This document shows, in pieces, positions 23,841-38,678 of a stretch of 64,000 bases of DNA. The position numbers and the translations under genes are program-made. The notes under the pieces were generated by a model that saw only the letters and a list, made by a program, of their open reading frames with translations, did no database searches and had not been told where the DNA came from. Numbering within the stretch: the first letter of the stretch is position 1; every line of letters starts with the position of its first letter. Origin of the DNA: Dokdonia donghaensis DSW-1 (GTDB lineage Bacteria; Bacteroidota; Bacteroidia; Flavobacteriales; Flavobacteriaceae); contig NZ_CP015125.1 of assembly GCF_001653755.1 (NCBI RefSeq), forward strand, positions 3,092,194 to 3,156,193, read 5' to 3'.

Positions 23841-24371
23841 ATGGAAACTAGCATACCCACACATCACAAAAATGTAGGAACATTAATACACCTTTCTACC
23901 TTCTGTAAATACCTTTTTCCTTTTGGAAATTTTATTGCGCCGCTCATTTTATGGAGCGCGCAAAAGCGCAACTCTTTATTTATAGACAAGCACGGTAGAG
24001 ATGCCATAAACTTTCAGCTCAGTATACTTTTATATTTTATTGCGCTGGCGGTAATAAGCATTCCGTTCTTTATTTACTTTATAGTAAGTGCTGGTGAGGG
24101 AAGCGCTAGCTTGCTTAACAATGGTTACATAAATGACCCTAGTGACTTTGCAGATCTAGGTGGTTTTCTCATCACTGCCATTGTGGTAGGTGTGCTGGCT
24201 ATAGGATTATTTCTTATAGAGATTATCACAGTAATTTCGGCAGCAGTGCAGGCATCACAAGGAGGCATTTACAAGTTTCCGCTTCTTATAAATTTTATCA
24301 AAGCTTCTGCCGTAGCAGAGACCCCAGATACTCAAGAGGACTCATCAACTCAAGAGCAACCTACTATATAA
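23841..24371 (+). CDS. DUF4870-like membrane protein
   Basis: Two hydrophobic hairpins. The N-terminus resembles DUF4870 proteins. Confidence 0.45.
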   Translation: METSIPTHHKNVGTLIHLSTFCKYLFPFGNFIAPLILWSAQKRNSLFIDKHGRDAINFQLSILLYFIALAVISIPFFIYFIVSAGEGSASLLNNGYINDPSDFADLGGFLITAIVVGVLAIGLFLIEIITVISAAVQASQGGIYKFPLLINFIKASAVAETPDTQEDSSTQEQPTI

Positions 24372-24389
24372 TGTAGTGGTATGACTATG

Positions 24390-24409
24390 TACGCTTTCGC
24401 GAAAGCGTA
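24390..24409. repeat. Perfect 20-bp palindrome TACGCTTTCGCGAAAGCGTA, intergenic, 3' of the DUF4870 gene and upstream of padR
   Basis: Seen directly in the sequence. Confidence 0.9.
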
Positions 24410-24483
24410 ACAACAATTAATCAATCACCTGACCCAAATCAGGACCAAAACGAACAGTTTAATGTATTTAAAAATGGAAATCT

Positions 24484-24825
24484 ATGAAGATTGAAAACAC
24501 CAAAGCGCAAATGCGAAAAGGCGTGCTAGAATACTGTATCCTCTCTGTATTAAAAGACGAAGATGCATATGTAGCAGAGATCTTAGGCACGCTTAAAGAC
24601 GCCAAGTTGCTGGTGGTAGAGGGTACAATTTACCCGCTTCTCACTAGACTTAAAAACGCTGGTTTACTCAACTATCGCTGGGAAGAATCTACCAGTGGTC
24701 CACCACGTAAATATTATGGACTTACCGAAACGGGTAAGATATTTTTAAAAGAACTCTCAACCACTTGGGATGAGTTACAGACAGCAGTAGCCGTAGTTAC
24801 ATCCACTAAAACCACAAAAAAATGA
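24484..24825 (+). CDS. PadR-family transcriptional regulator
   Basis: Winged HTH GVLEYCILSVLKDEDAYVAEI...GTIYPLLTRLKNAGLL. 113 aa. Confidence 0.85.
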   Translation: MKIENTKAQMRKGVLEYCILSVLKDEDAYVAEILGTLKDAKLLVVEGTIYPLLTRLKNAGLLNYRWEESTSGPPRKYYGLTETGKIFLKELSTTWDELQTAVAVVTSTKTTKK

Positions 24826-26618
24826 ACAAGACAGTTAATATAAATTTAGCAGGAGTATTTTTTCATATAGATGAGGATGCTTACGGTAAATTACAGAGAT
24901 ATCTCGCTGCCATCAAACGTTCTTTTGAAGGTATGCAAGGTGAAGATGAAATTATAGCAGATATAGAAGCTCGTATCTCTGAGCTATTTTCTGAGCGTAT
25001 TAAAGACGAGCGCCAGGTAATAGGCTCACAAGAGCTAGACGAGGTGATTGCTGTAATGGGACAACCAGAAGACTATATGGTAGATGACGATATTTTTGAA
25101 GATGAGCCTGCAGCTAGCAGCAACTCCTCAAAAAAGTCAAAACAAGCACCACGTATCGCACAACGCCGTTTTTACAGAGATACAGATAACGCTTACATAG
25201 GCGGTGTATCTAGCGGTATGGGGCACTATCTGGGTATAGATCCTTTATGGGTACGTATAGGCTGGGTGTTACTTATAGCGCTTACTTGGTTTACACTAGG
25301 AGGTACTGCACTTATCTATCTTGCCCTATGGGTTTTTGTGCCAGAGGCACAAACCACGGCAGATAAACTCGCAATGCGGGGAAAGGCAGTTAACATTGAC
25401 AATATCACAGAAAAAGTAAAAGAAGGATTTGAAAATGTGGCTGACACCGTAAAGAGTGTAGATTATGATAAGTATGGCAATAAAGTAAAAACAGGAGCTC
25501 AAGGTTTTTTCGGGACCATTGGTAAGATTATTATGTTTTTCTTTAAAGTCCTTGCAAAGATTATAGGGGTACTCCTTATTATAACTGGAGCTACCGTAGT
25601 TATCTCATTACTTATCACCTTCTTAACTGGTGGTGTAGTAGATATTTTCACCCCTAATCTAGCCGATTTACCGTGGGTAAATAATGAGACAGGACTGCCT
25701 ATCTGGCTTGTACTTCTTCTCACGTTATTTGCAGTTGGAATACCTTTCTTCTTCCTATTTTATTTAGGACTTAAGATTGTTTCTTCTAACTTAAAATCTA
25801 TGCCGGTGAGTGCAAAGCTTAGCCTCTTTGGTCTATGGCTTGTCTCTGCGATAGTAATAGGCGTATTTTCTGTAAAAGAAGCTATTAAGTATTCTAACAC
25901 AGAAACTGGTAAAGTAGTAGAGCGCACAGAGCTTGCGATAACGGCAAGTGACACGCTGCGCATACAGATGCGAGAGAGTGATCGTTATGAGATTCCTTTT
26001 GGGCGATCTACTGGATTTATGAGGACAATTAAGAGTGATACAGAAAATGTGACTATAGAGCGTGACGTACGTCTTATTGTGAGAAGTACTAAAGATAGTA
26101 ATGGCTACATCCAGATAGAAAAACGAGCAGATAACTTCACGTATGAAGAAGCACGTGAGCTAGCCTCATCTATACAGTATGATTTTAAACTAGAAGACGG
26201 TGTTTTATCACTAGATGGCTTTCTTACCTCACCTACTCAAAAATCATATGGCCACTGGAATGATCGCGAGGTACAAGTGATTGTATACCTTCCAGAAGGA
26301 ACTACCCTCATTGCAGATGATAATACGTACTCATACCACCGCAATGATAGTAGATACCGTGACATACTAGATAATGGAACAGAAGAGCAATACCTTACCG
26401 TGGGTAATGGCAAGCTTCTTTGTGACGGCTGTCCAGAAGATCGCAGTTATGATTACAATGATGATGATAACTCTTGGGAGCAATCTGGTAATGATTCTTG
26501 GGAAGAACGCAGTTATGAAGAAGGAGAAAATGCTCCAGAATGGGATCGTGAGCCAGAAGCACCCCAAGCTCCTACACCACCAGACACTCCTGACACAGAC
26601 GTGCTACGAAATAACTAA
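24822..26618 (+). CDS. PspC-domain membrane protein (stress-responsive, PadR-coupled)
   Basis: PspC domain RRFYRDTDNAYIGGVSSGMGHYLGIDPLWVRIGWVLL followed by TM helices and a large C-terminal domain. 4-nt overlap with padR. Confidence 0.8.
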   Translation: MNKTVNINLAGVFFHIDEDAYGKLQRYLAAIKRSFEGMQGEDEIIADIEARISELFSERIKDERQVIGSQELDEVIAVMGQPEDYMVDDDIFEDEPAASSNSSKKSKQAPRIAQRRFYRDTDNAYIGGVSSGMGHYLGIDPLWVRIGWVLLIALTWFTLGGTALIYLALWVFVPEAQTTADKLAMRGKAVNIDNITEKVKEGFENVADTVKSVDYDKYGNKVKTGAQGFFGTIGKIIMFFFKVLAKIIGVLLIITGATVVISLLITFLTGGVVDIFTPNLADLPWVNNETGLPIWLVLLLTLFAVGIPFFFLFYLGLKIVSSNLKSMPVSAKLSLFGLWLVSAIVIGVFSVKEAIKYSNTETGKVVERTELAITASDTLRIQMRESDRYEIPFGRSTGFMRTIKSDTENVTIERDVRLIVRSTKDSNGYIQIEKRADNFTYEEARELASSIQYDFKLEDGVLSLDGFLTSPTQKSYGHWNDREVQVIVYLPEGTTLIADDNTYSYHRNDSRYRDILDNGTEEQYLTVGNGKLLCDGCPEDRSYDYNDDDNSWEQSGNDSWEERSYEEGENAPEWDREPEAPQAPTPPDTPDTDVLRNN

Positions 26619-26624
26619 CCTACT

Positions 26625-27071
26625 ATGAAAAACCCAACCAATCTTCTTTGGATCCTGTTGCTGCTCCCCTTGATCGGAGTGGCGCAGGTGTCTGAGGATA
26701 GTAAACTTTATAAAGAAATTCTTGCTATAGACAGTGCTCTTTTTGGCTCATATAATAATTGTGATCTCGCAACTCACGAAGCGCTCATCTCAGAAGATCT
26801 TGAGTTTTATCACGACAAGGGTGGACTTTCTACTAGCAAAACAGAGTATATGAAGGCTCTCAAGGAGAATATTTGTAATAAAGTACAGAGAACACTTACT
26901 CCAGGCACCTTTGAGGTACACGAGATAGCGGGTTTTGGCGCGGTATCATTAGGAAAACATAGTTTTCATAACCTAGTAGAAGACAGCCATTCAGAACCAT
27001 CTAAGTTTATTACCATATTAAAAGACACCCCAAAAGGCTGGAAAATCACACGGGTGATAAGCTTGCACTAG
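26625..27071 (+). CDS. Secreted NTF2-like / DUF4440-family protein
   Basis: Signal peptide, 148 aa, SnoaL/NTF2-like pattern (low confidence). Confidence 0.45.
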   Translation: MKNPTNLLWILLLLPLIGVAQVSEDSKLYKEILAIDSALFGSYNNCDLATHEALISEDLEFYHDKGGLSTSKTEYMKALKENICNKVQRTLTPGTFEVHEIAGFGAVSLGKHSFHNLVEDSHSEPSKFITILKDTPKGWKITRVISLH

Positions 27072-27116
27072 CAATCTATACAACTCAGTCATAAATTACT
27101 ACAGTTGGGTAGGTTA

Positions 27117-27132
27117 CGCTTTCGCGAAAGCG
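27117..27132. repeat. Iterated palindrome copy, intergenic, 3' of the NTF2-like gene and upstream of the DUF2807 gene
   Basis: CGCTTTCGCGAAAGCG. Confidence 0.9.
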
Positions 27133-27210
27133 GACTTAGCTACATCTTTACATCATCAATCAAAAACAATCAATCAAACAAACGAACCAATCACCAAAAA
27201 TCCAATCATT

Positions 27211-27948
27211 ATGACAACGCTCATCAAAACAATTTTAGGAATCCTTACTGCTGTACTCGTCACCTCTTGTCAGTTTGACATTAATCTAGGGCAAATACAC
27301 GGCGACGGAAATGTAGTTACAGAAGATCTGAACATCACAGAAGACTTTGACGAAGTAGTCGCTGGAAATGGCTGGGAAGTATTTTTAGAAAAAGGAAGTA
27401 CAAACGGCGTAATACTGGAAGCAGACCAAAACCTAGTAGACGCTGCCGAAATTTATGTGAAAGACGGGAAGCTTAAAATATACTGCGAAGACAATATCAA
27501 AAGTGCTACCTCAAAAAAGGTGTTTGTAACCTACTCAGAAAATCTTACTGATGTGAGCGTAAATAGTGGTGCAAGTCTCACTACAAAGGAAACACTTACT
27601 GGAGATGATATTGAATTTGACGCATCTTCTGGAGGGACAATGCGCGTACAAGTTTCTGCAAAAAATGTAGAGACAGATGTAAGTAGCGGTGGCGTGGCAC
27701 GTATCTCTGGTAGTGCAGAGCGACTAGATGCTTCGGTTTCTAGTGGTGGTGTAGCAAGAATAAGTAAACTCAAATCTGTGAGTGCAAAGGCAGATGCTTC
27801 ATCTGGAGGCGTGATGGACGTTTACGCTTCTCAAGATCTTAAGGCGGAGGCCTCTTCTGGAGGAATCATAAATTACTACGGTAGCCCAAGAAATGTGGAT
27901 AAGCCTAAAAAAAGCTACTCTGGTGGGGTTATAAGAAGCAAAGAATAA
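27211..27948 (+). CDS. DUF2807 (Toast-rack / head-GIN domain) lipoprotein
   Basis: Lipobox LVTSCQF. Tandem SSGG(V/I)xxI repeats: DVSSGGVARISGSAERLDASVSSGGVARIS...ASSGGVMDV...ASSGGIINY. Confidence 0.65.
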   Translation: MTTLIKTILGILTAVLVTSCQFDINLGQIHGDGNVVTEDLNITEDFDEVVAGNGWEVFLEKGSTNGVILEADQNLVDAAEIYVKDGKLKIYCEDNIKSATSKKVFVTYSENLTDVSVNSGASLTTKETLTGDDIEFDASSGGTMRVQVSAKNVETDVSSGGVARISGSAERLDASVSSGGVARISKLKSVSAKADASSGGVMDVYASQDLKAEASSGGIINYYGSPRNVDKPKKSYSGGVIRSKE

Positions 27949-28028
27949 TTACAATAAATAACATCAATCAATCAACACAAAAAATGCTCGATACTATCGA
28001 GCATTTTTCTTTGTATAATAGTCAAGAG

Positions 28029-28784
28029 TTATAATCCAGCCTTTATTTTCATAAACTGGGCTTCTAGCAGTGCCATCTTTTCTTCTAGTCCATCTGCCAG
28101 TTCTGGCACTCTGTGATAGAAGACGTAGCGTATGCGCCAGAGTTCTTTAATTTCTTTTATAGGAAACTCTAGGTCGTCTATATTTTTATGATCTGCTCTT
28201 AGGGTAATAGTATTTCCAGAGAGATAGCAACGTCTTAATACTAGTCTATCATTAAAAACGGCTAGAATGAGATGTCCATTATTGAGCTTTTTATAAACGT
28301 TTTTTGGGATGTGCTCACCTATTACTATATCTTTTGGGAAGAGTCCTTTGTCATTACTACTCATCTCCAAGTTATCTACCGTAAAGGCTCTGAAATCTTT
28401 TTCTGGATTTACGGGTAGTTGTAACACAGGCATATCTGCTACAAAAGCTTCCCTGTCATTATATAATAGATAGTCATTTGTGTTTTTTGGTGTGATGCAA
28501 GGTATTGTAGCAAAGGTTTCCTTTGTAATCTGCTCGTGATCTGTAGTAAGGTCTGCTTTAAATTTGAGCAAACTATTTACAGTAAGCTCTTTTGTGAGCA
28601 AGTCATCTATAGGAATGCTAAAATAATTAGCAATTTTAATTATCGTATCTATTTTAGGTTCACTCCTACCCTCCTCATAAGCCCCTAACGTCCCTCTTTT
28701 CAGGTCAAAGAGCTCTGCAAACGACTGCTGACTAAGCGTCTTTACGGTTCTTATTTTTCGAATGTTTTTACCAAAGAATGACAT
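28029..28784 (-). CDS. XRE-family HTH regulator with C-terminal LexA/S24-like domain
   Basis: N-terminal HTH_XRE (IRKIRTVKTLSQQSFAELFDLKRGTLGAYEEGRSEPKIDTIIKIANYF). C-terminal beta-rich domain with a LexA-like LAVFNDRLVLRR segment; the catalytic Ser/Lys dyad was not confidently identified. Confidence 0.65.
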   Translation of the reverse strand: MSFFGKNIRKIRTVKTLSQQSFAELFDLKRGTLGAYEEGRSEPKIDTIIKIANYFSIPIDDLLTKELTVNSLLKFKADLTTDHEQITKETFATIPCITPKNTNDYLLYNDREAFVADMPVLQLPVNPEKDFRAFTVDNLEMSSNDKGLFPKDIVIGEHIPKNVYKKLNNGHLILAVFNDRLVLRRCYLSGNTITLRADHKNIDDLEFPIKEIKELWRIRYVFYHRVPELADGLEEKMALLEAQFMKIKAGL

Positions 28785-28792
28785 ATTTTGCT

Positions 28793-28817
28793 AATTTTAT
28801 TTGCAAATGACAAAATT
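28793..28817. promoter_or_regulatory. Palindromic candidate operator (aatttt-ATTTGCAAAT-gac-aaaatt) 15 bp upstream of the XRE/S24 regulator start, in the divergent promoter region
   Basis: 10-bp perfect palindrome ATTTGCAAAT with flanking inverted AATTTT/AAAATT. Located in the 265-bp divergent intergenic region between the repressor gene and the ybjN-pspA string. Confidence 0.35.
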
Positions 28818-29020
28818 GTTCGTATATTTACCTAACAATTTTAGCGAAAAGAATTCACTTATGCTAATTTATTTAGCTTTTTCGCAAAAGCGTAATAGCA
28901 TCATCAAACATTCATCAATCAAAAATCAAACATTATGACCACTTTAATTATTTACATCCTGAGCCACTTATAAACAATTGGGTATTTACAGAGACAAGTT
29001 TTCGTATTATTAACCTTCCA

Positions 29021-29446
29021 ATGTATTGGAACACAACATTGACACTCTTTATGAAGAACCACTTTACAATTATTCGAGATTTTTTATTAGAACTCAACTT
29101 TAATATCACTACAGAAAATACGGCAGATGGTATTATGGTTGTACAGAAGGAAAACTCAGGTATCAAAAACCTAATTCTGGGCATTGCTCCTCCTATTCTA
29201 ATTATCGAGCAATTTATTTTTACCATCAATAACCAGTCAGAAAAGATTTTTAAAAGTCTGCTGCAAAAAAACCGAGATATCATACACGGCGCTTTTGTAC
29301 TAGATGATACTGGTAAAAAGGTCATCTTTAGAGATACCCTACAGATAGAAAATCTTGACCTCAACGAGCTAGAGGGTAGCTTGAACTCCCTGAGTTTACT
29401 TATGAGTGAGTACTCAGAACAGATTATAGAATTTTCAAAATATTAA
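29021..29446 (+). CDS. YbjN-like (T3SS-chaperone-like fold) protein, PspA-associated
   Basis: About 130-140 aa acidic protein. The segment AFVLDDTGKKVIFRDTLQIENLDLNELEGSLNSL is typical of YbjN-family proteins. The stop is 11 nt before pspA. Alternative start at 29051 (MKNHF). Confidence 0.5.
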   Translation: MYWNTTLTLFMKNHFTIIRDFLLELNFNITTENTADGIMVVQKENSGIKNLILGIAPPILIIEQFIFTINNQSEKIFKSLLQKNRDIIHGAFVLDDTGKKVIFRDTLQIENLDLNELEGSLNSLSLLMSEYSEQIIEFSKY

Positions 29447-29457
29447 AAAACGACATT

Positions 29458-30171
29458 ATGAACATATTTAAACGACTTTTTAAAATAGGACAAGCAGAGG
29501 CAAATGCATCTATAGATAATATGGAAGATCCTATCAAGATGACAGAGCAAGGCATACGAGATATGAAAGAAGATCTAGCCAAAAGTGTAGAAGCAATGGC
29601 GCAAGTAAAAGCAATGGCCATACGCGCAAAAAACGAGCGTGACGAGCACGATGCAAAAGCAAAAGACTACGAGAGCAAAGCCATCGCTATTCTTAAAAAA
29701 GCACACGCAGGATCTATGGATGCAACAGATGCAGACAGACTAGCAAAAGAAGCCCTTGCCAAAAAAGAAGAAGCACAGTCACACGCCACTCGTGCTGGTG
29801 AGGATACTTCAAAATTTGAAGGGAATGTAGCTCAACTACAAGGTACTATCCAGACTATTAAAGATAACATAAGCAACTGGGAGAACGAGCTTAAAACACT
29901 CAAGGCACGTGTAAAAGTGAGCGATGCTACAAAGAATGTAAACAAGCAAATGGCTGCACTAGATAGTACAGGCACCGTGAGTATGCTAGAACGAATGAAA
30001 GAAAAAGTAGCGCAAGAAGAAGCTCTTGCAGAGGCTTATGGAGACATTGCAGATACTAATAAAAGTATAGATGATGAGATAAACGCTGCTGCAGATACTA
30101 GCGAGGAGAAAGTAGATGACGAGCTTGCAAAACTTAAAGAACAATTAGGGCTAGGTAAAGACAACGCCTAG
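29458..30171 (+). CDS. pspA: PspA/IM30/Vipp1-family protein (ESCRT-III superfamily)
   Basis: MNIFKRLFKIGQAEANASIDNMEDPIKMTEQGIRDMKEDLAKSVEAMAQVKA is the canonical PspA N-terminus. 237 aa, entirely coiled-coil. Confidence 0.85.
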   Translation: MNIFKRLFKIGQAEANASIDNMEDPIKMTEQGIRDMKEDLAKSVEAMAQVKAMAIRAKNERDEHDAKAKDYESKAIAILKKAHAGSMDATDADRLAKEALAKKEEAQSHATRAGEDTSKFEGNVAQLQGTIQTIKDNISNWENELKTLKARVKVSDATKNVNKQMAALDSTGTVSMLERMKEKVAQEEALAEAYGDIADTNKSIDDEINAAADTSEEKVDDELAKLKEQLGLGKDNA

Positions 30172-30199
30172 CCATCATAAACCTTAAAACCATCAACCA

Positions 30200-30913
30200 T
30201 TGGACAACTTTATAAATCTCATATTTTCAGAAGTTAATATCATCTTGAGCGTCTTATTGATACTCTTGATCATTTACTGGGTACTTACCTCGGTGAGCGG
30301 TATTGATTTTGACTACGATATGGACATCGACATAGATCTCGATGTAGATGTAGATGCAGATTTTGACATCAACACCGTAGACTCTGGCAGTATGGATTTT
30401 GAAGATGTCTCAAGTGCAGAGGTAGACAGGTCACACGTTGTAAATAAAAGACGTAAACCACTTAAGTGGTGGCAAGTATTTTTAATTTACTTCAACTTTG
30501 TAGGTCTTCCATTTATGTTCACCTTTACGGTATGGGTATTTTTATGGTGGCTTTGTACCCTAGTAACCACAAGTATTACTGGTAGCTATGCAACTAGTTT
30601 TGGTTACATACTTATGTTGAGCTGTATGATCCCTGCTTTGTTCCTTACTAAGATATTTACCACTCCATTTAAGTCATTTTTTAAAAACTTGAATAAAGAT
30701 GGTGATAAAGCTACAGACTTTCTAGGTCGTGACGCCGTGTTGCTATCTACCATTTCTGGAGATAAAATGGGTAACGCAGAGGTACTAGCAGATGGTAACC
30801 CGATGAGTATTTATGTAAAATCACTAGATGGGTCAGAAATACGCTTTCGCGAAAGCGTACTCATCATCAAACAGTCACCAGATAAAAATTACTTTTTAGT
30901 CAGTAAATATTAA
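30200..30913 (+). CDS. NfeD/YqiJ-like membrane protein (flotillin partner)
   Basis: N-terminal TM helix, acidic D-rich linker (DIDIDLDVDVDADFD), three TM helices and a C-terminal OB-fold-like tail (AEVLADGNPMSIYVKSLDGSEIRFRESVLIIKQ). Immediately precedes the flotillin gene, as yqiJ-yqiK does. Confidence 0.6.
   Translation: MDNFINLIFSEVNIILSVLLILLIIYWVLTSVSGIDFDYDMDIDIDLDVDVDADFDINTVDSGSMDFEDVSSAEVDRSHVVNKRRKPLKWWQVFLIYFNFVGLPFMFTFTVWVFLWWLCTLVTTSITGSYATSFGYILMLSCMIPALFLTKIFTTPFKSFFKNLNKDGDKATDFLGRDAVLLSTISGDKMGNAEVLADGNPMSIYVKSLDGSEIRFRESVLIIKQSPDKNYFLVSKY
30840..30859. repeat. Perfect 20-bp palindrome inside the NfeD-like CDS (frame FRES)
   Basis: TACGCTTTCGCGAAAGCGTA. The protein reads IRFRESVLI. 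Confidence 0.9.
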
Positions 30914-30967
30914 TTAAGCGTGTAAACGCACATTCATAATCAACCAAAAACAAAAATCATCAATTTT

Positions 30968-33034
30968 ATGGAAAACCTACCATCTATCGCCATCGCCCTC
31001 GTTGTAGGCATTGTGGCACTCATTGTTATTTACTTCCTCATCATTGCGATGTTCTACAAAAAGGTACATCAAGGTCAAGCCTTGGTTCGTACAGGTTTTG
31101 GCGGAACAAAAGTAGCGACAGATAAAGGGCTCTATGTGGTTCCTGTCTTTCACCGGGTAGAAGTAATGGATATTTCTGTAAAGAAAATTCAAATCGAACG
31201 TCTAGCGACCGAAGGTCTTATCTGTAAAGACAATATGCGTGCAGATATCAAGGTAGCCTTCTTTGTGCGTGTAAATAATGAAGTTGAGTACATTAAAAAA
31301 GTGGCGCAAACTATAGGTGTGCAACGTGCATCACGTCAAGAAACACTTGAAGACCTTTTTGAAGCAAAATTTTCTGAAGCGCTTAAAACCGTGGGTAAAA
31401 AGTTTGACTTTATACAGCTTTATGAGGCTCGTCGTGAGTTTCGCGATGAGATTGTAGACATTATAGGTACAGATCTTAATGGGTATACTCTTGAAGATTG
31501 TGCGATAGATTACCTAGAGCAAACTGCAGTCACACATCTTAAGGCAGATAACATACTTGATGCAGAAGGTATTAAGAAAATCACAGATCTTACAGCTGCA
31601 CAAAACATCAAAGCAAACCTTATTAAACGTGATGAGGAGAAAGTTATACGCAAGCAAGATGTAGAGGCTCGCGAGGCGATACTAGAACTAGATAAGCAAC
31701 TCGCCGAAAAAGAAGAACAGCAAAAACGTGAGATCTCAAACATAAAATCTCGTGAAGAGGCAGAGATTCTTAAAGTTGCCGAAGAAGAGCGTCTCAAGTC
31801 TGAAACCGCTCGCATTGCTACCGAAGAAAAAGTAAAAGTAGCCGAAGAGAATATGCAACGCCAGATCATCGTAGCTGAGAAAAACAAGCAACGTACAGAC
31901 AAGGTGGAGACAGAGCGTGTGGAGAAAGACCGTATGCTAGAACTTACCGAGAGAGAGCGCGTAGTGACACTAGCTCAAATTGAAAAAGAAAAAGTTGTTG
32001 AAGTTGAGAAAAAGAACATTCAAGATGTGATACGCGACCGCGTAATGCTCGAGAAAGGTGTGGTAGAGGAGCAAGAAAATATGAAAGATATTGAGGCTTT
32101 TAAAACTGCAGACCGTTCTAAGCAAGTAGCAATCACAAATGCAGAGGCAGCGGCTCAAGAAGATCTTATTAAGACCATAAAAGCAGCCGAAGCATCAAAA
32201 GAAGCAGCAAAACAAAAAGCCGAAGAGATTAATATCGAAGCACTAGCGCATAAGGAAGCAAGTGAAAAAGAAGCAGAAGCACGTAAAATTCTTGCCGAAG
32301 CACAAGCTAAGGAAGAAGCAACCGTGGGTATGTCTGAGGCACAAGTAATGCACGCTAAGGCAGATGCAAATGAGCGTCAAGGTATTGTTGAGGCAACCGT
32401 TATCGAGAAAAAGGCACTTGCAGAAGCTGCCGGAATTGAAGCAAAAGCTGAAGCAAAACGTAAGGATGGTCTTGCAGAGGCAGATGTGATTAAAGAAAAA
32501 GCCCTTGCAGATGCTGCAGGTATTGAAGAGAAGGCAAATGCTATGAAGAAACTTGACGGTGTAGGTAAAGAACACGAAGAGTTTAAACTACGTCTTGATA
32601 AAGAACTTCAGGTAGATCTTGCAGAGATTAATATCCAGAAAGATATTGCAGATGCCCAAGCACAGGTTATAGGCGATGCTCTTAAGGCTGCAAATATTGA
32701 TATTGTAGGTGGTGAGACAATGTTCTTTGACCAGATTATAGGGCAAATTACAAAGGCCAAAGGTTATGACAGACTCGTACACCACTCAGAAACGGTAACC
32801 GAAGTAAAAGATGCCATTTTAGGTAGTGATGATGTAAAAGGAAACTTGCTTGAAAAAGTAAAAGAATTTGCAGATAAGTACGGCATCTCTTCTGAAGATC
32901 TTAAAAATGTGACCATTGCAAACTTACTGATGGATTTAAAATCTAAATCTTCAGACAGCAGTGAGCAAACCTTATTCAGCAACCTATTTAACCTTGCAAA
33001 AGGATTAGGATTATCTGATAAGAAACTGAAATAA
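30968..33034 (+). CDS. Flotillin-family SPFH/Band-7 protein (YqiK-like) with long EA-rich coiled-coil
   Basis: N-terminal TM helix. SPFH domain (QALVRTGFGGTKVATDKGLYVVPVFHRVEVMDISVKKIQI...ADIKVAFFVRV). Several hundred residues of E/A/K-rich coiled coil. 688 aa. Confidence 0.85.
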   Translation: MENLPSIAIALVVGIVALIVIYFLIIAMFYKKVHQGQALVRTGFGGTKVATDKGLYVVPVFHRVEVMDISVKKIQIERLATEGLICKDNMRADIKVAFFVRVNNEVEYIKKVAQTIGVQRASRQETLEDLFEAKFSEALKTVGKKFDFIQLYEARREFRDEIVDIIGTDLNGYTLEDCAIDYLEQTAVTHLKADNILDAEGIKKITDLTAAQNIKANLIKRDEEKVIRKQDVEAREAILELDKQLAEKEEQQKREISNIKSREEAEILKVAEEERLKSETARIATEEKVKVAEENMQRQIIVAEKNKQRTDKVETERVEKDRMLELTERERVVTLAQIEKEKVVEVEKKNIQDVIRDRVMLEKGVVEEQENMKDIEAFKTADRSKQVAITNAEAAAQEDLIKTIKAAEASKEAAKQKAEEINIEALAHKEASEKEAEARKILAEAQAKEEATVGMSEAQVMHAKADANERQGIVEATVIEKKALAEAAGIEAKAEAKRKDGLAEADVIKEKALADAAGIEEKANAMKKLDGVGKEHEEFKLRLDKELQVDLAEINIQKDIADAQAQVIGDALKAANIDIVGGETMFFDQIIGQITKAKGYDRLVHHSETVTEVKDAILGSDDVKGNLLEKVKEFADKYGISSEDLKNVTIANLLMDLKSKSSDSSEQTLFSNLFNLAKGLGLSDKKLK

Positions 33035-33090
33035 AACTCAGTAAACAACGGCAGCTTGCACCCAGTGAGATGGCAAGCTGCTGGTTGTTT

Positions 33091-33112
33091 TTACGCTTTC
33101 GCGAAAGCGTAA
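33091..33112. repeat. Perfect 22-bp palindrome TTACGCTTTCGCGAAAGCGTAA, intergenic between flotillin and the giant AAA+ gene
   Basis: Seen directly in the sequence. 57 nt after the flotillin stop and 70 nt before the giant gene start. Confidence 0.9.
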
Positions 33113-33181
33113 TTACTACTACATCTCACAACTTTCATCACAAGAATCAATCAACAAACCAACGATTAGTTTCCAACATTT

Positions 33182-36100
33182 ATGGCAAACGAAACTCCAG
33201 ATATACAACCTAAAGCAACGCAAACTCTTGACGGCGGCACCTATGAGATTATACAAGGTAGACTGCAAAAACAAAAAACCGACTTACAACAGCGGTTACA
33301 AGAACTTAACGAGGAGCGTAAAAATGTTTTTGGTTCACTAGAAACAAAGCTCATTGCAAATGACCGTATCAATACAGAAAATAACTGTATTGCACGTGAT
33401 ATTGTATCGCTTAAAAACCTGTGTTTGTTTGGCTACAATGTGCATTTTGGACTACGCACAGACATACACCTAGGAGATGTTTTTAGTGCCTATGAGTTTA
33501 AAGACAATCGTTTTGAACCTCGTGATCTTTCACTTTTACAAGACGACACTTTTCTACTAGACTTTGCAAACCTCTACAAGTATTACCGTAATACCATCTT
33601 TTCAAAGTTTGCGATTATAGGTAACTACCTGTATATGGTATTTCAGCTTAGTGATAGTGTTACAGATATTAAAACATTTAAGTGGCTCATAAAAGAAGAT
33701 ACGTTACAGTATGTAGATAACCGTAGTGAGCACGAGTACCGCTTCCCACAGCAACACGATTTTAAGTGGCAAGAGGCTACGCGTGATATGCACCGTTATG
33801 GTGAGCACGCTCACGTATCTATTTTAGATAAGGTGTTTGTAGAGACTATAGGTGGTGATCTTACCATAAAAATAGAAGATAATACAGACCAAGGTAAAGG
33901 AATACTAGATGAGCCGGTAGAGCTTATAGACCAGACACTAGATGACGGTCAGTATCGCTATGCAGATCTGGGCAACCTACTTGCACTAGAGATTAAACCC
34001 TTTCAAGAAGAACCTCGCTATTTTGTATTTAATAACAAACTAAAGGAAGTTCAAAAAATACAGAGTGTAAAGGACACCTGTGTCTTACTTCCAGATGATC
34101 AAGGTATCATTTTCCCAACAGGCTACTACTTACAAACAGGAGAATACAACATTTTTGACAATGCCATCCCAAATGTAAAATTTCAGCAAAAGGTGAGTTC
34201 GCCTAACGGGGAGGACTTTTTATATGTCTTTTACTCGCCAGAAGAGGCGCTGTACAACTTGATGTCATATAATGTGATTACTCAAGAGATAAAAACTCCT
34301 ATTATCTGTAATGGTTTTACCGTATTGCAAGATGGGCAGCTATGCTATTTTAGAACCGAAAATGAGCAAACCAAGCATCACGTGATACAGATCTGGCAAA
34401 CCCCATTTTTAAAGGGTGACTATATGCCTTCTCAGCACGAAGACACCTTGCTTTACAAAATAGGAAATAAGGATATTGTAAAAGCAATGGCAGAGGTTAA
34501 TAGCCTCATCACACTGCTCAACAAAGAAGATAATTACGACGGCCTGTATAGCGATATTGCTAAGTTCTCAAAAGATATACTTGATGCTTACTACTGGCTT
34601 CCAGAAGCAGAAACCAAGCAACTCAACGTACCACTTGCAGAAATAAATGGTGCTGCAAATGCAGCTATAGATGAGTTTCAAAAAGTAGTACAGCTCAAGC
34701 GCAACGCTGCCAAACAGACTAAAGAAGTTGAGACCAAAGCCTCTGAGATTTTTGGCAAAATAAAAAGCACCTCTTTTAAGTCTATTAATGATTTTGTGGC
34801 GCTGCTCACACAGTTGCGATCATTACGTGGAGAGACCATCTCGCTTAATGATATACGGTATGTAGATCCCACTTTCGTAAAAACGCTAGAGGAAGAAATT
34901 GCTGTGCAAACACAAAAAATTTCTGAGAAGTGTGTACAGTTCTTACTAGATGACAAAGCGTTAAAACCGTATCACGATGCCGTAGCCGAAAAGAAACAGG
35001 CGATGGATGGCATCAAGAAAGTAATTGAAGCCAAAAAGCTCGAAGAAGAAGTAAACCAGATTGCAACAGATCTTGAGTTACTTATCGACATTGTTTCAAA
35101 CCTTGATATAGAAGACACCTCCCACTCTACTAAGATAATTGATGATATCTCGCTCATTTTTGCAACTATCAATCAGTTAAAGGCTGGGATTAAGAATAAG
35201 AAAAAATCACTGGGAAGTGCAGAAGCACAAGCCGACTTTGCTGCCCAATTGAAGCTTATTGATCAAAGTATCATAAACTACCTAGATATTGCCACCACGC
35301 CAGAAAAGTGTGATGAGTTCCAGACTAAAATCTCTATCCAGCTAGAAGAGCTAGAAGGAAAGTTTGCAGACTGGGATGAGTTTATCACACTTATTATTGA
35401 AAAGCGCGAGGAAGTGTACGGAGCTTTTGAAGCACGTAAAAACGCACTGATAGAGAAGCGCAATAAAAAGGCAATGGCATTAAAAAATGCCTCAGAACGC
35501 ATTTTAAAAGGCGTACGTAAAAAAGCCGAAAGCTTTAAAACAGCCTCTGAAATAAACGGATACTTTGCCGCAGACCTTATGATTAATAAGGTACGCGATA
35601 TCATACAGCAACTTAAAGAGCAAGAAGATACCGGAAAGGCAGAAGAGATTGAGACTGGACTTAAAACAGCTCGTGAAGATGCGCTGCGCAAGCTCAAAGA
35701 CAAACTAGATCTCTATGAAGATGGAGATACGGTAATACGACTTGGCAAGCATAAATTTGGTGTAAACAAGCAACCGCTTGACCTCACTATTGTGCTCAAA
35801 GACGGCGCGCTTAACTATCACCTCACAGGCACCGATTTTTATCAAGAACTCTCAAACGAGACCCTTCTCGCCTCTCGCGATATCTGGGATCAAGAATTTG
35901 TATCAGAAACTAGCGAGGTGTACCGCAGTGCCTACCTAGCTTATAAATTATTTAATAAACTAGACAAGCACACGCTACTAGAAGCTGGTGATGATGCGCT
36001 ACTTGCGATAGTACAAGAAGAAAGCCGCAATGATTATGCAGAGGGCTATGTAAAAGGTGTGCACGATGTAGACGCGACTAAAATTTTAAAGGTACTCGTA

Positions 36101-38059
36101 CACAAACACAACGAACTAGGACTACTCACCTACGCCCCAGAAATTAGAGCATATGCTCAGTATTTCTGGAACAGCATTGACCCAACTACTCAAAAAACGC
36201 TTAACCAGTCTATAAAGGCTTCGGGAGAGGTGTTGCAGTTTTTTCCAGATGCAAAGGAGTACCAATTTATCGTTGAGACGTTAAGTGAGGAGATACACGC
36301 TTTCGCGAAAGCAGAGTCCCTTTTCTCACCCGATTTAAGTCAGACCATTGCGACCTACATCTTTGATGAGCTTCAAGGTGACACAGAGTTTGTGCGTAGT
36401 AGTGTTGCGGTGCGTTTAAAAGACGCTTTCGCGAAAGCGTTAAAACAACAACAGGCAGATCTTAAGTTTAAGAAAAGTTATGAGTCACTCCCTAGCTTAA
36501 AAGGGAAAGTACAGCTCGTAAAACAGTGGGTGACGGCATTTGTACGCACCCAAGAAAGTCTTACCGATGTGCGCTACGTAGATGAAGTGGTGTGTTTACT
36601 ACTCTTTGAAGATGAGTCGGTTTTAAAAACAAAAGCGGCTTCTCCAAATGAAAAAATCACTGGCTTAAGCGGTGATCACAGCACGATAACCGATGGTGTT
36701 TTCAACTTTAACTACCACGACTTTACGGCAAGGCTCAACTTATTTGTAACAGATCAAGTACCTGCATTTGAAACATTTAAGAAGGCAAAACATACGGTTA
36801 CAGAAGAGTTAAAAGAAGCTTTGAAACTGGACGAATTTAAACCAAGGGTTCTTACATCCTTTGTGCGTAATAAGCTGATTGACCAAGTGTATTTCCCATT
36901 GTTTGGTGATAACCTCGCAAAGCAATTAGGAACCGTGGGTGATAATAAACGTACCGACCGTATGGGTATGTTGCTCCTCATCTCACCACCTGGATACGGA
37001 AAAACCACCCTGATGGAATATATCGCAAACCGTCTAGGACTCGTTTTTGTGAAAATTAACGGCCCAGCGATAGGTCACGAAGTTACGTCTGTAGATCCAG
37101 AAAGTGCTACAAATAGCGCTGCTCGTGAAGAGCTCAAAAAACTCAACGTCGCTTTTGAAATGGGGAATAATGTGATGCTATATCTAGACGATATACAGCA
37201 CTGTAATCCTGAGTTTTTACAAAAATTCATCTCCTTATCTGACGGTACACGTAAGATAGAGGGTGTGTACAACGGGAAGTCAAAAACCTATGACCTACGT
37301 AGCAAGAAATTTTGTGTGATAATGGCGGGTAACCCATATACAGAGAGTGGAGAGAAATTCCGCATACCAGATATGCTTGCAAACAGGGCAGATATTTATA
37401 ACCTGGGAGATATTATAGGAGATACTGAACACCTGTTTAAATTGAGTCTTATTGAGAATTCGCTCACTGCAAATGCGCTATTGCAGCAGTTAAGTAGTAG
37501 TCATTTTGAGGATGTGTATACCTTAATAGACCGCATAGAAAATGGGACGCAAGACAGTCAGCTCAAAGGAAATCACACCGCGCAAGAGGTAGCAGATTAT
37601 ACAAAAGTACTAGAAAAGGTAATCACCATACGTAACACAGTACTTAAGGTTAATGCAGAATACATACGCAGTGCCGCGCAAGAAGATGCCTATCGCACAG
37701 AGCCGTCTTTTAAACTTCAAGGGTCATACCGTGATATGAATAAACTAGTAGCCAAAGTGGTTCCCATTATGAATGACACTGAGCTTGCGACATTGCTCCT
37801 ATCACATTATGAAAGTGAGTCACAAACTCTCACTTCAAGCGCAGAGGCAAACCTCTTAAAATACCGCGAACTCATAAATGCGCTAGATGAAACGCAGCAA
37901 CAGCGCTGGAACACGATGAAAGAAACCTTTGTAAAAAATAATAAACTCAAAGGTTTTGGTGACAAGAACGAGATGGCACAAGTACTCTCTCAAATGATGG
38001 AGTTTACCGAGAATCTAGAAGGGATAAAAAAGGCGCTTGAGAAGGGGTTGGAGAAATGA
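33182..38059 (+). CDS. Giant (1625 aa) protein with a C-terminal AAA+ ATPase module; N-terminal region has no recognisable domains
   Basis: Single uninterrupted ORF. Walker A LLLISPPGYGKTTL (about residue 1260). Walker B VMLYLDDIQH. Sensor-1-like CVIMAGNPY. Arg-finger-like RIPDMLANRADIY, resembling MoxR/dynein/chelatase-type (AAA_5-like) ATPases. The N-terminal 1200 or so residues are partly coiled-coil. Two internal copies of the AFAKA palindrome. Confidence 0.8.
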   Translation: MANETPDIQPKATQTLDGGTYEIIQGRLQKQKTDLQQRLQELNEERKNVFGSLETKLIANDRINTENNCIARDIVSLKNLCLFGYNVHFGLRTDIHLGDVFSAYEFKDNRFEPRDLSLLQDDTFLLDFANLYKYYRNTIFSKFAIIGNYLYMVFQLSDSVTDIKTFKWLIKEDTLQYVDNRSEHEYRFPQQHDFKWQEATRDMHRYGEHAHVSILDKVFVETIGGDLTIKIEDNTDQGKGILDEPVELIDQTLDDGQYRYADLGNLLALEIKPFQEEPRYFVFNNKLKEVQKIQSVKDTCVLLPDDQGIIFPTGYYLQTGEYNIFDNAIPNVKFQQKVSSPNGEDFLYVFYSPEEALYNLMSYNVITQEIKTPIICNGFTVLQDGQLCYFRTENEQTKHHVIQIWQTPFLKGDYMPSQHEDTLLYKIGNKDIVKAMAEVNSLITLLNKEDNYDGLYSDIAKFSKDILDAYYWLPEAETKQLNVPLAEINGAANAAIDEFQKVVQLKRNAAKQTKEVETKASEIFGKIKSTSFKSINDFVALLTQLRSLRGETISLNDIRYVDPTFVKTLEEEIAVQTQKISEKCVQFLLDDKALKPYHDAVAEKKQAMDGIKKVIEAKKLEEEVNQIATDLELLIDIVSNLDIEDTSHSTKIIDDISLIFATINQLKAGIKNKKKSLGSAEAQADFAAQLKLIDQSIINYLDIATTPEKCDEFQTKISIQLEELEGKFADWDEFITLIIEKREEVYGAFEARKNALIEKRNKKAMALKNASERILKGVRKKAESFKTASEINGYFAADLMINKVRDIIQQLKEQEDTGKAEEIETGLKTAREDALRKLKDKLDLYEDGDTVIRLGKHKFGVNKQPLDLTIVLKDGALNYHLTGTDFYQELSNETLLASRDIWDQEFVSETSEVYRSAYLAYKLFNKLDKHTLLEAGDDALLAIVQEESRNDYAEGYVKGVHDVDATKILKVLVHKHNELGLLTYAPEIRAYAQYFWNSIDPTTQKTLNQSIKASGEVLQFFPDAKEYQFIVETLSEEIHAFAKAESLFSPDLSQTIATYIFDELQGDTEFVRSSVAVRLKDAFAKALKQQQADLKFKKSYESLPSLKGKVQLVKQWVTAFVRTQESLTDVRYVDEVVCLLLFEDESVLKTKAASPNEKITGLSGDHSTITDGVFNFNYHDFTARLNLFVTDQVPAFETFKKAKHTVTEELKEALKLDEFKPRVLTSFVRNKLIDQVYFPLFGDNLAKQLGTVGDNKRTDRMGMLLLISPPGYGKTTLMEYIANRLGLVFVKINGPAIGHEVTSVDPESATNSAAREELKKLNVAFEMGNNVMLYLDDIQHCNPEFLQKFISLSDGTRKIEGVYNGKSKTYDLRSKKFCVIMAGNPYTESGEKFRIPDMLANRADIYNLGDIIGDTEHLFKLSLIENSLTANALLQQLSSSHFEDVYTLIDRIENGTQDSQLKGNHTAQEVADYTKVLEKVITIRNTVLKVNAEYIRSAAQEDAYRTEPSFKLQGSYRDMNKLVAKVVPIMNDTELATLLLSHYESESQTLTSSAEANLLKYRELINALDETQQQRWNTMKETFVKNNKLKGFGDKNEMAQVLSQMMEFTENLEGIKKALEKGLEK
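36299..36312. repeat. Iterated palindrome core inside the giant gene (encodes AFAKA)
   Basis: The protein reads HAFAKAESL. Confidence 0.9.
36423..36440. repeat. Iterated palindrome copy inside the giant gene (encodes AFAKA), 124 bp from the previous copy
   Basis: ACGCTTTCGCGAAAGCGT. The protein reads KDAFAKALKQ. Confidence 0.9.
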
Positions 38060-38109
38060 TTTTAAAAACATCTCCCCTAACCCCTCTTTGAAGAAGGGAA
38101 TACTCACGA

Positions 38110-38144
38110 TACTTTTTAATTTTGCTTTGCAAAATTAAAAAGTA
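38110..38144. other. Perfect AT-rich stem-loop (14-bp stem, 7-nt loop) downstream of the giant gene
   Basis: tactttttaatttt-gctttgc-aaaattaaaaagta. Flanked by two related shorter hairpins (CCCTCTTTGAAGA(A)GGG at about 38081-38098 and 38161-38178) and a distal inverted pair catctccc/gggagatg. Confidence 0.6.
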
Positions 38145-38294
38145 TCAAACCACAACAGTGTCCCTCTTTGAAGAGGGAGTCAGGGAGATGTCCGCGAAGA
38201 GGAGATAAAGTCACAAAATGTGAGATATCCGCAAAGAATCACAAACAAAAAACGACAGCTCTCGCTGTCGTTTTAAATATATAAATTTTCGATT

Positions 38295-38678
38295 TTACAA
38301 ATCTTCTGGAGATGTTACAACAGTAATTCCCGTCACACAGTGCTCAATCATATCTCTTGGGAAATTTTTGATTTCTCCACTTCTTGTTTTTATAAAGTCG
38401 AGGTCTTGACTAAAATAGCAAGTCCCATCAATTTGCAGAAAATCAAAAACAAAATTTTTAAATTCCTGATCAATAGAGGGTCTATGTAGCGAAAGTTGAC
38501 TGAAATTATCTTTGGTAAAAGTTCCACTTTCAAATAAATCTCTGTCAGCTATGAGTTCTATTTCAGATGAAGTTTCTCTAATACTACCATATTTCGAAAA
38601 ACCATTCTTGATATCATCAACAGCAATTTTTGCTGGCTCTCCATCTTTGAACTTCCCAATAAAAACAGTATAACTCAT
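38295..38678 (-). CDS. Hypothetical cytoplasmic protein
   Basis: 127-aa ORF with no motifs. 5 nt downstream of trxB on the same strand. Confidence 0.4.
   Translation of the reverse strand: MSYTVFIGKFKDGEPAKIAVDDIKNGFSKYGSIRETSSEIELIADRDLFESGTFTKDNFSQLSLHRPSIDQEFKNFVFDFLQIDGTCYFSQDLDFIKTRSGEIKNFPRDMIEHCVTGITVVTSPEDL

Follow-up and report, generated by a model that had tools for sequence, protein, structure and literature searches.

We found a cluster of six genes in a 64,000-nucleotide stretch of the Dokdonia donghaensis DSW-1 genome (contig NZ_CP015125.1, positions 3,092,194 to 3,156,193; this whole stretch is called the window below). A gene for an XRE-family regulator is transcribed divergently from five co-directional genes, which encode a CesT/Tir-like protein, a PspA/IM30 protein, a YqiJ-like membrane protein, a flotillin and a giant DUF3686-family protein with an AAA+ ATPase module (Table 1). 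An earlier note on this DNA, made from the letters alone, had proposed the cluster as a novel membrane-remodelling or membrane-stress system. All six open reading frames (ORFs) are present, with the coordinates and the co-directional and divergent layout that it gave. The gaps among the five co-directional genes are 11, 28, 54 and 147 nucleotides (nt), and the divergent intergenic region between the regulator and CesT-like genes is 236 nt long.

Table 1. Genes and other sequence features at the locus and its flanks, in window positions.
Feature	Position	Strand	Remarks
XRE-family helix-turn-helix (HTH) regulator gene	28029..28784	-	251 amino acids (aa); = ANH61661.1 by exact-sequence look-up
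CesT/Tir-like chaperone-fold protein gene	29021..29446	+	141 aa; = ANH61662.1 by exact-sequence look-up
PspA/IM30 (ESCRT-III superfamily) gene	29458..30171	+	237 aa; = ANH61663.1 by exact-sequence look-up
YqiJ/YuaF-type (DUF1449, NfeD-like) membrane protein gene	30200..30913	+	237 aa, TTG start
YqiK/FloT-type flotillin gene	30968..33034	+	688 aa
Giant DUF3686-family protein gene	33182..38059	+	1625 aa; = ANH61666.1 by exact-sequence look-up
GCTAA-N5-TTAGC dyads, candidate operators	28617-28631 (in regulator gene), 28790-28804, 28831-28845, 28863-28877	.	motif scan
Two stacked hairpins, flotillin-giant gap	33043..33112	+	first terminator/attenuator-like, second a copy of a dispersed palindrome
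Adjacent PSP-type (phage shock protein) module	23841..27948	+	DUF4870, PadR, PspC+LiaI-LiaF-TM+Toastrack, DUF4440 (NTF2-like), DUF2807 (Pfam)
Bidirectional terminator-like hairpin	27980..28008	.	between regulator and upstream DUF2807 gene
11-bp-stem hairpin	38249..38274	.	3' of giant gene; called on minus strand as terminator of a 127-aa ORF

The 141-aa protein matches CesT_Tir_1 in Pfam (PF22550, E 1e-57, 194.2 bits against a cut-off of 27). This match places it in the CesT/Tir type-III-chaperone-like superfamily, with chaperone activity predicted. No YbjN family is among its Pfam matches, although no test was aimed at YbjN. The next protein matches PspA_IM30 (PF04012, E 5e-45, 154.3 bits against a cut-off of 33.9) over residues 2-230 and aligns end to end, over residues 1-230, with solved Vipp1/PspA chains (E 2e-14). 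Its N-terminal helix-like stretch is MNIFKRLFKIGQ. The full-length homology agrees with its earlier identification as an ESCRT-III-like PspA, and sequence similarity thus assigns it to the PspA/IM30 proteins of the ESCRT-III superfamily, with membrane polymerisation predicted.

The fourth protein of the cluster gives no Pfam family even at E <= 10 and no sequence relative in PDB. A profile of 59 homologs matches Escherichia coli YqiJ (hmmsearch E 1.4e-11; hhalign 95.8%, residues 86-230 against YqiJ 49-197), so that the NfeD-like label of the earlier note holds at the level of the family profile. Hydrophobic segments lie at residues 3-38 and 93-155, in a layout of an N-terminal transmembrane segment, an acidic D-rich linker, a further transmembrane block and a C-terminal soluble domain. 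The flotillin matches Band_7 (E 5e-13, 50 bits against a cut-off of 23.6) and consists of a transmembrane anchor (residues 1-34), an SPFH domain and a long E/K/A-rich C-terminal stretch. Its family profile matches E. coli YqiK (E 3.8e-72; hhalign 100%), and a PDB sequence search with it returned no match. Judged by the Band_7 and YqiK matches and the N-terminal anchor, it is a YqiK/FloT-type SPFH protein, as had been claimed. The same YqiJ-like and flotillin pair, in the same order, occurs in E. coli yqiJ-yqiK and Bacillus subtilis yuaF-floT. In E. coli, however, no giant ATPase, PspA or repressor follows yqiK, and the window flotillin is longer (688 versus 553 aa).

The giant protein matches DUF3686 (E 1.5e-178), DUF7902 (aa 592-676) and one AAA/AAA_5 module in Pfam, in agreement with the earlier description of a 1625-aa protein with a single AAA+ module. 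An exhaustive family search gave 1376 clusters at 50% identity with E <= 0.001 from many phyla, 416 of them with E <= 1e-30. Homologs of 1600-1900 aa are colinear with the query down to about 27% identity, and across Flavobacteriaceae genera the protein is at least 70% identical over its full length. The AlphaFold models, built on a 59-sequence alignment, are confident, with predicted local distance difference test scores (pLDDT) of 84.9 (aa 1-1180) and 87.3 (aa 1150-1625). They predict a helix at the N-terminus, followed by a beta-propeller at aa 55-406 (nt 33344-34399) and a stretch of long helices at aa 423-843. Next come a small beta domain at aa 851-889, a helical domain at aa 915-1141, the AAA+ module (about aa 1264-1454, nt 36971-37543) and a helical C-terminal extension. 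The AAA+ motifs are Walker A SPPGYGKT (1268-1275), Walker B LDD (1335-1337), a pre-sensor-1 hairpin (1358-1371), N1384 and R1402. In a 50-member alignment the Walker A residues GYGKT, N1384 and R1402 are invariant, and Walker B is an invariant Asp-Asp (D1336/D1337), not Asp-Glu.

The top Foldseek matches of the AAA+ model are MCM, the MoxR proteins CbbQ and NorQ, and RuvB, and the MoxR proteins are its best structural relatives. Because of these matches, the beta-hairpin that the model places between the Walker B and sensor-1 strands, the AAA_5 match above the Pfam cut-off and the motif AGNPYTESGEKFRIPDMLANRAD, which is consistent with MoxR-like placement, the modelled ATPase module is assigned to the MoxR/midasin/dynein-like clade and not to the Vps4-like one. 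The Vps4 and classical AAA clade is characterized by an MIT domain and the lack of a pre-sensor-1 hairpin; the giant has the hairpin, and no MIT domain was detected in it with Pfam. The Vps4 analogy of the earlier note thus does not hold as a family relationship. A classical AAA assignment was also considered and rejected, since the PDB sequence matches to Cdc48/p97/Rix7 cover only the Walker A region and are overruled by the structure searches. MoxR chaperones (CbbQ-CbbO, NorQ-NorD, RavA-ViaA) differ from the giant in turn: here about 1250 residues (propeller, helical) precede the ATPase module in the same chain, Walker B is DD and not DE, and there is no VWA partner among the conserved neighbours, as no neighbour family beyond the six genes is conserved in the 80 loci described below.

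For aa 1-1180 (33182-36721) the top Foldseek matches are beta-propeller/alpha-solenoid IFT-A subunits, nucleoporins, Vps18 and clathrin, with a template-modelling (TM) score of at most 0.14 of the query length. Homology to membrane coats was rejected, as the matches are generic and these values very low; the likeness of the model to membrane coats and IFT-A is probably one of architecture only. No transmembrane segment is predicted in the giant, and Pfam detects no protease domain. In Pfam, DUF3686 bears the title 'ATPase involved in DNA repair', and the NCBI name is 'DNA repair ATPase'. Since no paper on DUF3686 was found and no repair gene is among the conserved neighbours, the name looks like an unsupported one that has spread to thousands of entries. 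We found no characterised relative of the giant, and the repair function is a Pfam title only.

We compared the locus with others in two ways. An alignment of 50 diverse members of the giant family led to 80 genomic loci from Bacteroidota, Planctomycetota, Verrucomicrobiota, Desulfobacterota and Clostridia, whose ORFs were searched with iterated profiles of each window protein. Enough upstream DNA was available at 62 of them. The flotillin gene is directly upstream of the giant gene in 60/62 loci, and the YqiJ-like gene lies directly 5' of the flotillin gene in 58/62. PspA is found in 30/37, the CesT-like gene in 29/37 and the regulator in 29/37 of the Bacteroidota loci; all three are found in 0/24 of the loci from other phyla. 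The regulator is present and divergent in each of the 29 giant-anchored loci that carry the CesT-like gene. Secondly, 80 metagenomic loci were collected with the CesT-like protein as the anchor, the denominators varying by gene. They contain the divergent regulator (56/56), PspA (61/63), flotillin (32/38) and the giant (26/30), and several consist of the regulator, the CesT-like gene and PspA alone. The CesT-like gene always directly precedes pspA, at a median distance of 11 nt. When the neighbouring ORFs were clustered all against all, no seventh conserved gene emerged: no family occurs in more than 8/80 loci, and the recurrent ones are scattered.

The adjacency of the YqiJ-like, flotillin and giant genes across phyla, the restriction of PspA to Bacteroidota and the three-gene loci without a giant gene indicate, taken together, that the locus is a fusion of two modules. 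One is the trio of YqiJ-like, flotillin and giant genes, which is near-universal in the giant-anchored loci across at least five phyla and is probably the ancient core. The other is the repressor gene with the divergent CesT-like and PspA genes, a separable add-on seen only in Bacteroidota. The constant partners of the giant are thus flotillin and the YqiJ-like protein, and not PspA, to which the earlier note had coupled it. Its broader claims, that the cluster is conserved and functionally linked and that the divergent regulator belongs to the system, are supported by both sets of loci. The trio also exists on the Pseudomonas fluorescens plasmid pQBR103 and on a Streptomyces plasmid. On pQBR103 (L081; SBW25 plasmid, 425 kb, positions 84452-105326) it comes after a YjfI-PspA-rhomboid-DUF2491-DUF350-DUF1190-glutathionylspermidine-synthase operon. 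This is a second, independent joining of PspA with the trio, through a different CesT-superfamily/PspA operon (YjfI/YjfJ-polyamine type).

The regulator has an XRE-type HTH (HTH_3, E 6e-11 in Pfam), and its own Peptidase_S24 match (16.5 bits) is under the cut-off of 23.3. Among 17 family members nine match S24 (best E 4e-9), and hhalign of the regulator against LexA gives a probability of 59%. Sequence comparison at the family level thus makes the C-terminal domain a probable homolog of the S24 (LexA/CI) fold, in line with the XRE/S24 type given earlier. Like LexA and lambda CI, the protein combines an HTH at its N-terminus with, probably, an S24-like fold at its C-terminus, is divergent from its target and is accompanied by multiple dyad sites. 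Unlike them, it has an XRE-type HTH, and the catalytic Ser/Lys pair is absent from the window protein and most relatives. LexA K156 aligns to R185, a position taken by Arg in most relatives and by Gly in others. The catalytic Ser corresponds to E140 in the lambda cI alignment or to the non-conserved S142 in the LexA alignment. Both residues are kept in only one of the 17 relatives (L011, a Flavobacterium, with DNSM...RK). Because the pair is absent from the window regulator, LexA-type self-cleavage appears unlikely in Dokdonia, and the LexA-like derepression suggested before is not supported. For the S24-like domain, a part in dimerisation or signal sensing is more probable.

The dyad GCTAA-N5-TTAGC, at up to one mismatch, has only four matches in the 64-kb window, all within 261 bp (28617-28877). 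In 29 loci it is 153-fold denser in the 5' end of the regulator gene and the intergenic region than elsewhere, at positions that are shared by taxa ranging from Flavobacteriaceae to Bacteroides, Chryseolinea and Chryseobacterium. This clustering and conservation make it the probable operator of the repressor, whose binding we infer from the DNA sequences. The intragenic dyad (28617-28631, GCTAAAATAATTAGC) spans the codons that specify Ala-Asn-Tyr-Phe-Ser in the HTH. Most of the 29 loci have it in the same place, -167 or -188 relative to the start codon, with the GCT and AGC codons mostly kept. This dyad reflects either a dual constraint on the coding sequence or an intragenic autoregulatory site.

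The operon class to which the cluster belongs has been published. Popp et al. (mSystems 2024, PMC11237479; preprint 2020) described operons with CesT/Tir-PspA, a band-7/flotillin protein, a novel AAA+ protein and YqiJ/YuaF, with ANH61662.1 and ANH61663.1 of D. donghaensis DSW-1 as exemplars. Their supplementary table lists, around ANH61663.1, a divergent 'cHTH+Protease' gene and upstream PadR, PspC-Toastrack, NTF2 and Toastrack genes. All five components lie in one co-directional cluster in the window, and the regulator, CesT-like protein, PspA and giant are residue-for-residue the D. donghaensis DSW-1 entries. Since the proteins are identical to the exemplars and the neighbourhood table matches, the window locus is the published exemplar itself, already known as a computational prediction. 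The combination is therefore not novel, contrary to the earlier note. The ESCRT-III/Vps4 analogy is not new either: Popp et al. proposed ATP-dependent membrane remodelling comparable to Snf7/Vps4 for PspA-associated AAA+ ATPases, and suggested that the CesT, band-7 and flotillin partners act like chaperones when membrane-linked complexes are assembled (PMC11237479). The prediction made from the window and the published one reach the same general reading. The publication gives the same gene content, with the divergent cHTH+Protease and upstream PadR/PspC/Toastrack genes, as a purely computational description, without the ATPase clade, an analysis of the catalytic residues of the regulator, the operator or counts of constant partners. 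Our analysis adds the two-module structure, the MoxR-like clade, a regulator lacking the Ser/Lys pair, a candidate operator and the PSP-type flank. A further comparative study reports PspA with band-7/FloT, NfeD and HTH regulators (Popp et al. 2022, PMC9239133). A 2025 review on ESCRT-III-like systems of bacteria states that bacteria seem to lack a Vps4-like ATPase and that the roles of the Band-7 partners of PspA are undetermined. Literature searches on DUF3686, on flotillin with 'DNA repair ATPase' and on Dokdonia MED134 locus tags returned nothing.

We consider, with a probability of about 50%, that the two fused modules form a membrane-scaffold or envelope-stress system. The flotillin and the YqiJ-like protein would together form an SPFH scaffold at the cytoplasmic membrane. 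On this scaffold the giant would dock via its propeller and helical arm and, as an ATP-driven and probably slow, switch-like MoxR-type ring, may assemble, remodel or dismantle it. In Bacteroidota, the CesT-like protein and PspA would add an ESCRT-III-type membrane-sealing polymer, with the CesT-like protein as a putative holder or targeting factor for PspA. The divergent, autoregulated XRE repressor, brought by the CesT-like/PspA module, would bind the GCTAA-N5-TTAGC dyads and may sense a signal through its non-catalytic S24-like domain. Gene content, domain identities, synteny, the ATPase clade, the loss of the catalytic pair and the clustering and conservation of the dyad are observed; the physical interactions, the direction in which the ATPase acts, the inducing signal and operator binding are what we infer beyond them. 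An SPFH-PspA link has a precedent in B. subtilis, where the SPFH protein YdjI is reported to be experimentally required to place PspA at the membrane (Scholz 2021). In B. subtilis ydjFGHI, PspA and YdjI are encoded together as in the window, but YdjI is of another SPFH subfamily, the partners are YdjG and YdjH, and there is no CesT-like, YqiJ-like or AAA+ protein. More specifically, and only tentatively, the giant might be a new class of ATP-driven membrane-scaffold machine, in which a ring of 1625-aa MoxR-like subunits would load, reshape or strip flotillin cages and, where present, PspA/ESCRT-III polymers by means of the propeller and helical arm.

Several points weigh against a membrane-scaffold or envelope-stress system of this kind. 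The docking of the giant on flotillin is a guess, and the N-terminal 1180 residues that would mediate it have no informative solved relative among the Foldseek matches given above. MoxR-type ATPases normally act together with a VWA protein, which is missing from the conserved neighbours here. The DD Walker B makes vigorous, unfoldase-type hydrolysis by the giant doubtful. DnaA also has a DD Walker B motif, and by this analogy the motif hints at slow, switch-like hydrolysis. The loss of the catalytic pair from the regulator depends on an S24 alignment with an hhalign probability of only 59%. The gap between the flotillin and giant genes contains a first hairpin with a 16-bp stem followed by UUGUUUUU (U-run), and the RNA there folds at -32.1 kcal/mol (z = -4.3), with 0/200 shuffled sequences folding equally well. 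Moreover, the gap is a hotspot of insertion in other genomes, with unrelated small genes in 18/60 loci. Because of the strong terminator-like hairpin and these insertions the giant gene may be transcribed separately, by attenuated read-through or from its own promoter. The adjacency of the two genes is nevertheless almost invariant (60/62). Finally, a literature search found no experimental study of the system, its components or DUF3686. The inserted genes encode an IS200-like Y1 transposase, DUF559-like and GIY-YIG-like proteins and lipoproteins; a conserved member in the enlarged gaps was looked for and rejected, as the ORFs are heterogeneous.

The alternative that survives best, although we regard it as rather unlikely, reverses the roles. 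As with HflK/C and FtsH, the flotillin/YqiJ-like scaffold would position and gate the giant, which would act on other clients, such as membrane-protein complexes, proteins receiving a cofactor as for MoxR proteins, or substrates of quality control. It is an established arrangement for an AAA+ machine to sit inside an SPFH cage, as in the HflK/C 24-mer structure, and in both systems an SPFH scaffold is genetically coupled to such a machine. The strict linkage of the giant with flotillin fits this alternative, its propeller and helical regions could bind clients, and its MoxR relatives CbbQ and NorQ remodel client enzymes and not scaffolds. However, no client or VWA adaptor is conserved in the neighbourhood, and the giant has neither a predicted transmembrane segment nor a protease domain. 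The SPFH subfamily also differs from that of HflK/C, and the coupling here is genetic.

It is improbable that the giant is a functional analogue of Vps4 that acts on the ESCRT-III-like PspA polymer. The window does resemble the ESCRT-III/Vps4 systems of archaea and eukaryotes in encoding an ESCRT-III superfamily protein together with an ATPase. PspA is in the same operon in Bacteroidota and was joined to the trio a second time on pQBR103, the analogy has been drawn for PspA-associated AAA+ ATPases (PMC11237479), and the 2025 review knows no Vps4-like regulator of PspA in bacteria. Yet the giant tracks flotillin and not PspA: outside Bacteroidota PspA accompanies it in 0/24 loci, where flotillin is almost always present, and the regulator-CesT-PspA module also occurs without it. 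In comparison with Vps4, it is a 1625-aa protein with a pre-sensor-1 hairpin, MoxR proteins as best matches and no detected MIT domain.

An anti-phage or abortive-infection role, which the earlier note had offered as an alternative, is very improbable. On this view the membrane would be damaged or sealed on infection, and a phage-type repressor would otherwise hold the system off. The regulator HTH does resemble phage and defence control proteins (RstR, RmrA, C-proteins), some defence systems contain giant NTPases, and the system is on a few megaplasmids. Against this, PADLOC-DB 2.0 models match the giant only in the Walker A region (mad8 E 6e-5; IetA E 4e-3), the regulator only through generic HTH models and PspA weakly, probably through its coiled coil; none match the CesT-like protein, the YqiJ-like protein or the flotillin. 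We found 0 copies in 50,697 phage records and copies in 13/72,556 plasmid records, mostly chromids or megaplasmids. The neighbours are not defence genes, and the identity of at least 70% among giants of Flavobacteriaceae genera, with fixed synteny, looks like vertical inheritance and not like defence-island turnover. A DNA-repair ATPase under a LexA-like SOS repressor is scarcely credible: the DUF3686 title and NCBI name, weak Walker A-region matches to RuvB, the presence of RuvB and MCM among the Foldseek matches and the S24-like fold of the regulator speak for it, but the literature search found no DUF3686 paper, the constant neighbours are membrane proteins with no conserved repair gene nearby, no nucleic-acid-binding domain was detected in the giant (Pfam; Foldseek of the N-terminal model), and the regulator lacks the Ser/Lys pair needed for RecA-stimulated cleavage.

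We also investigated the flanks of the locus. The hairpins on either side (27980-28008 and 38249-38274) delimit the cluster. Upstream lies a second PSP-type envelope-stress module, so that Dokdonia has two PSP-type systems side by side; its DUF2807 gene is the gene listed as TM+Toastrack (TM, transmembrane) in the supplementary table of Popp et al. 2024. No neighbour from this module is conserved in the other genera sampled (80 loci). The earlier note had described both flanks as unrelated housekeeping genes. This is incorrect for the upstream DUF2807 gene, which belongs to the PadR-PspC-Toastrack module. Between the giant and the thioredoxin-reductase-like genes is a 127-aa ORF (38295-38678, minus strand), with its own terminator-like hairpin at 38249-38274. 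Neither Pfam nor NCBIfam gives a match for it and none of the 80 related loci contains a homolog, and it was rejected as a member of the system on these grounds.

A scan for sigma-70 promoters gave a number near the shuffled expectation (34 found, 25.9 expected), and the Bacteroidetes-type consensus TTTG...TAnnTTTG has no match in the locus; we assign no promoter here. The second hairpin of the flotillin-giant gap is one of the copies of a dispersed 16-18-bp palindrome, (A)CGCTTTCGCGAAAGCG(T), which occurs 20 times in the 64 kb at up to two mismatches; for a related 17-mer, 0.04 matches are expected by chance. Its sites include 4657, 21438, 24392, 27117, 30842, 33094, 36298, 36424, 39697, 53048 and 58312. 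Nine copies are intergenic and 11 are inside long ORFs; the latter include two sites in the giant gene and one in the YqiJ-like gene that translates as RFRES. Among 83 loci the palindrome was found only in a Nonlabens metagenome-assembled genome (L006, seven sites), where one site has the same place in the YqiJ-like gene. In appearance it is an iterated, lineage-specific palindrome like those of the HIP1 or REP type.

Because the locus has already been published, the value of these results is a sharper, testable picture and not a discovery: a giant that goes with flotillin and a YqiJ-like protein, an ATPase module that is MoxR-like by its model, a regulator that is unlikely to cleave itself as LexA does and a candidate operator. 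Among genomic candidates for an energy-dependent partner of membrane scaffolds in bacteria, this operon is the clearest. If the giant does act as a membrane-scaffold machine, bacterial SPFH and ESCRT-III scaffolds would have in it their missing energy-consuming regulator, evolved independently of Vps4.

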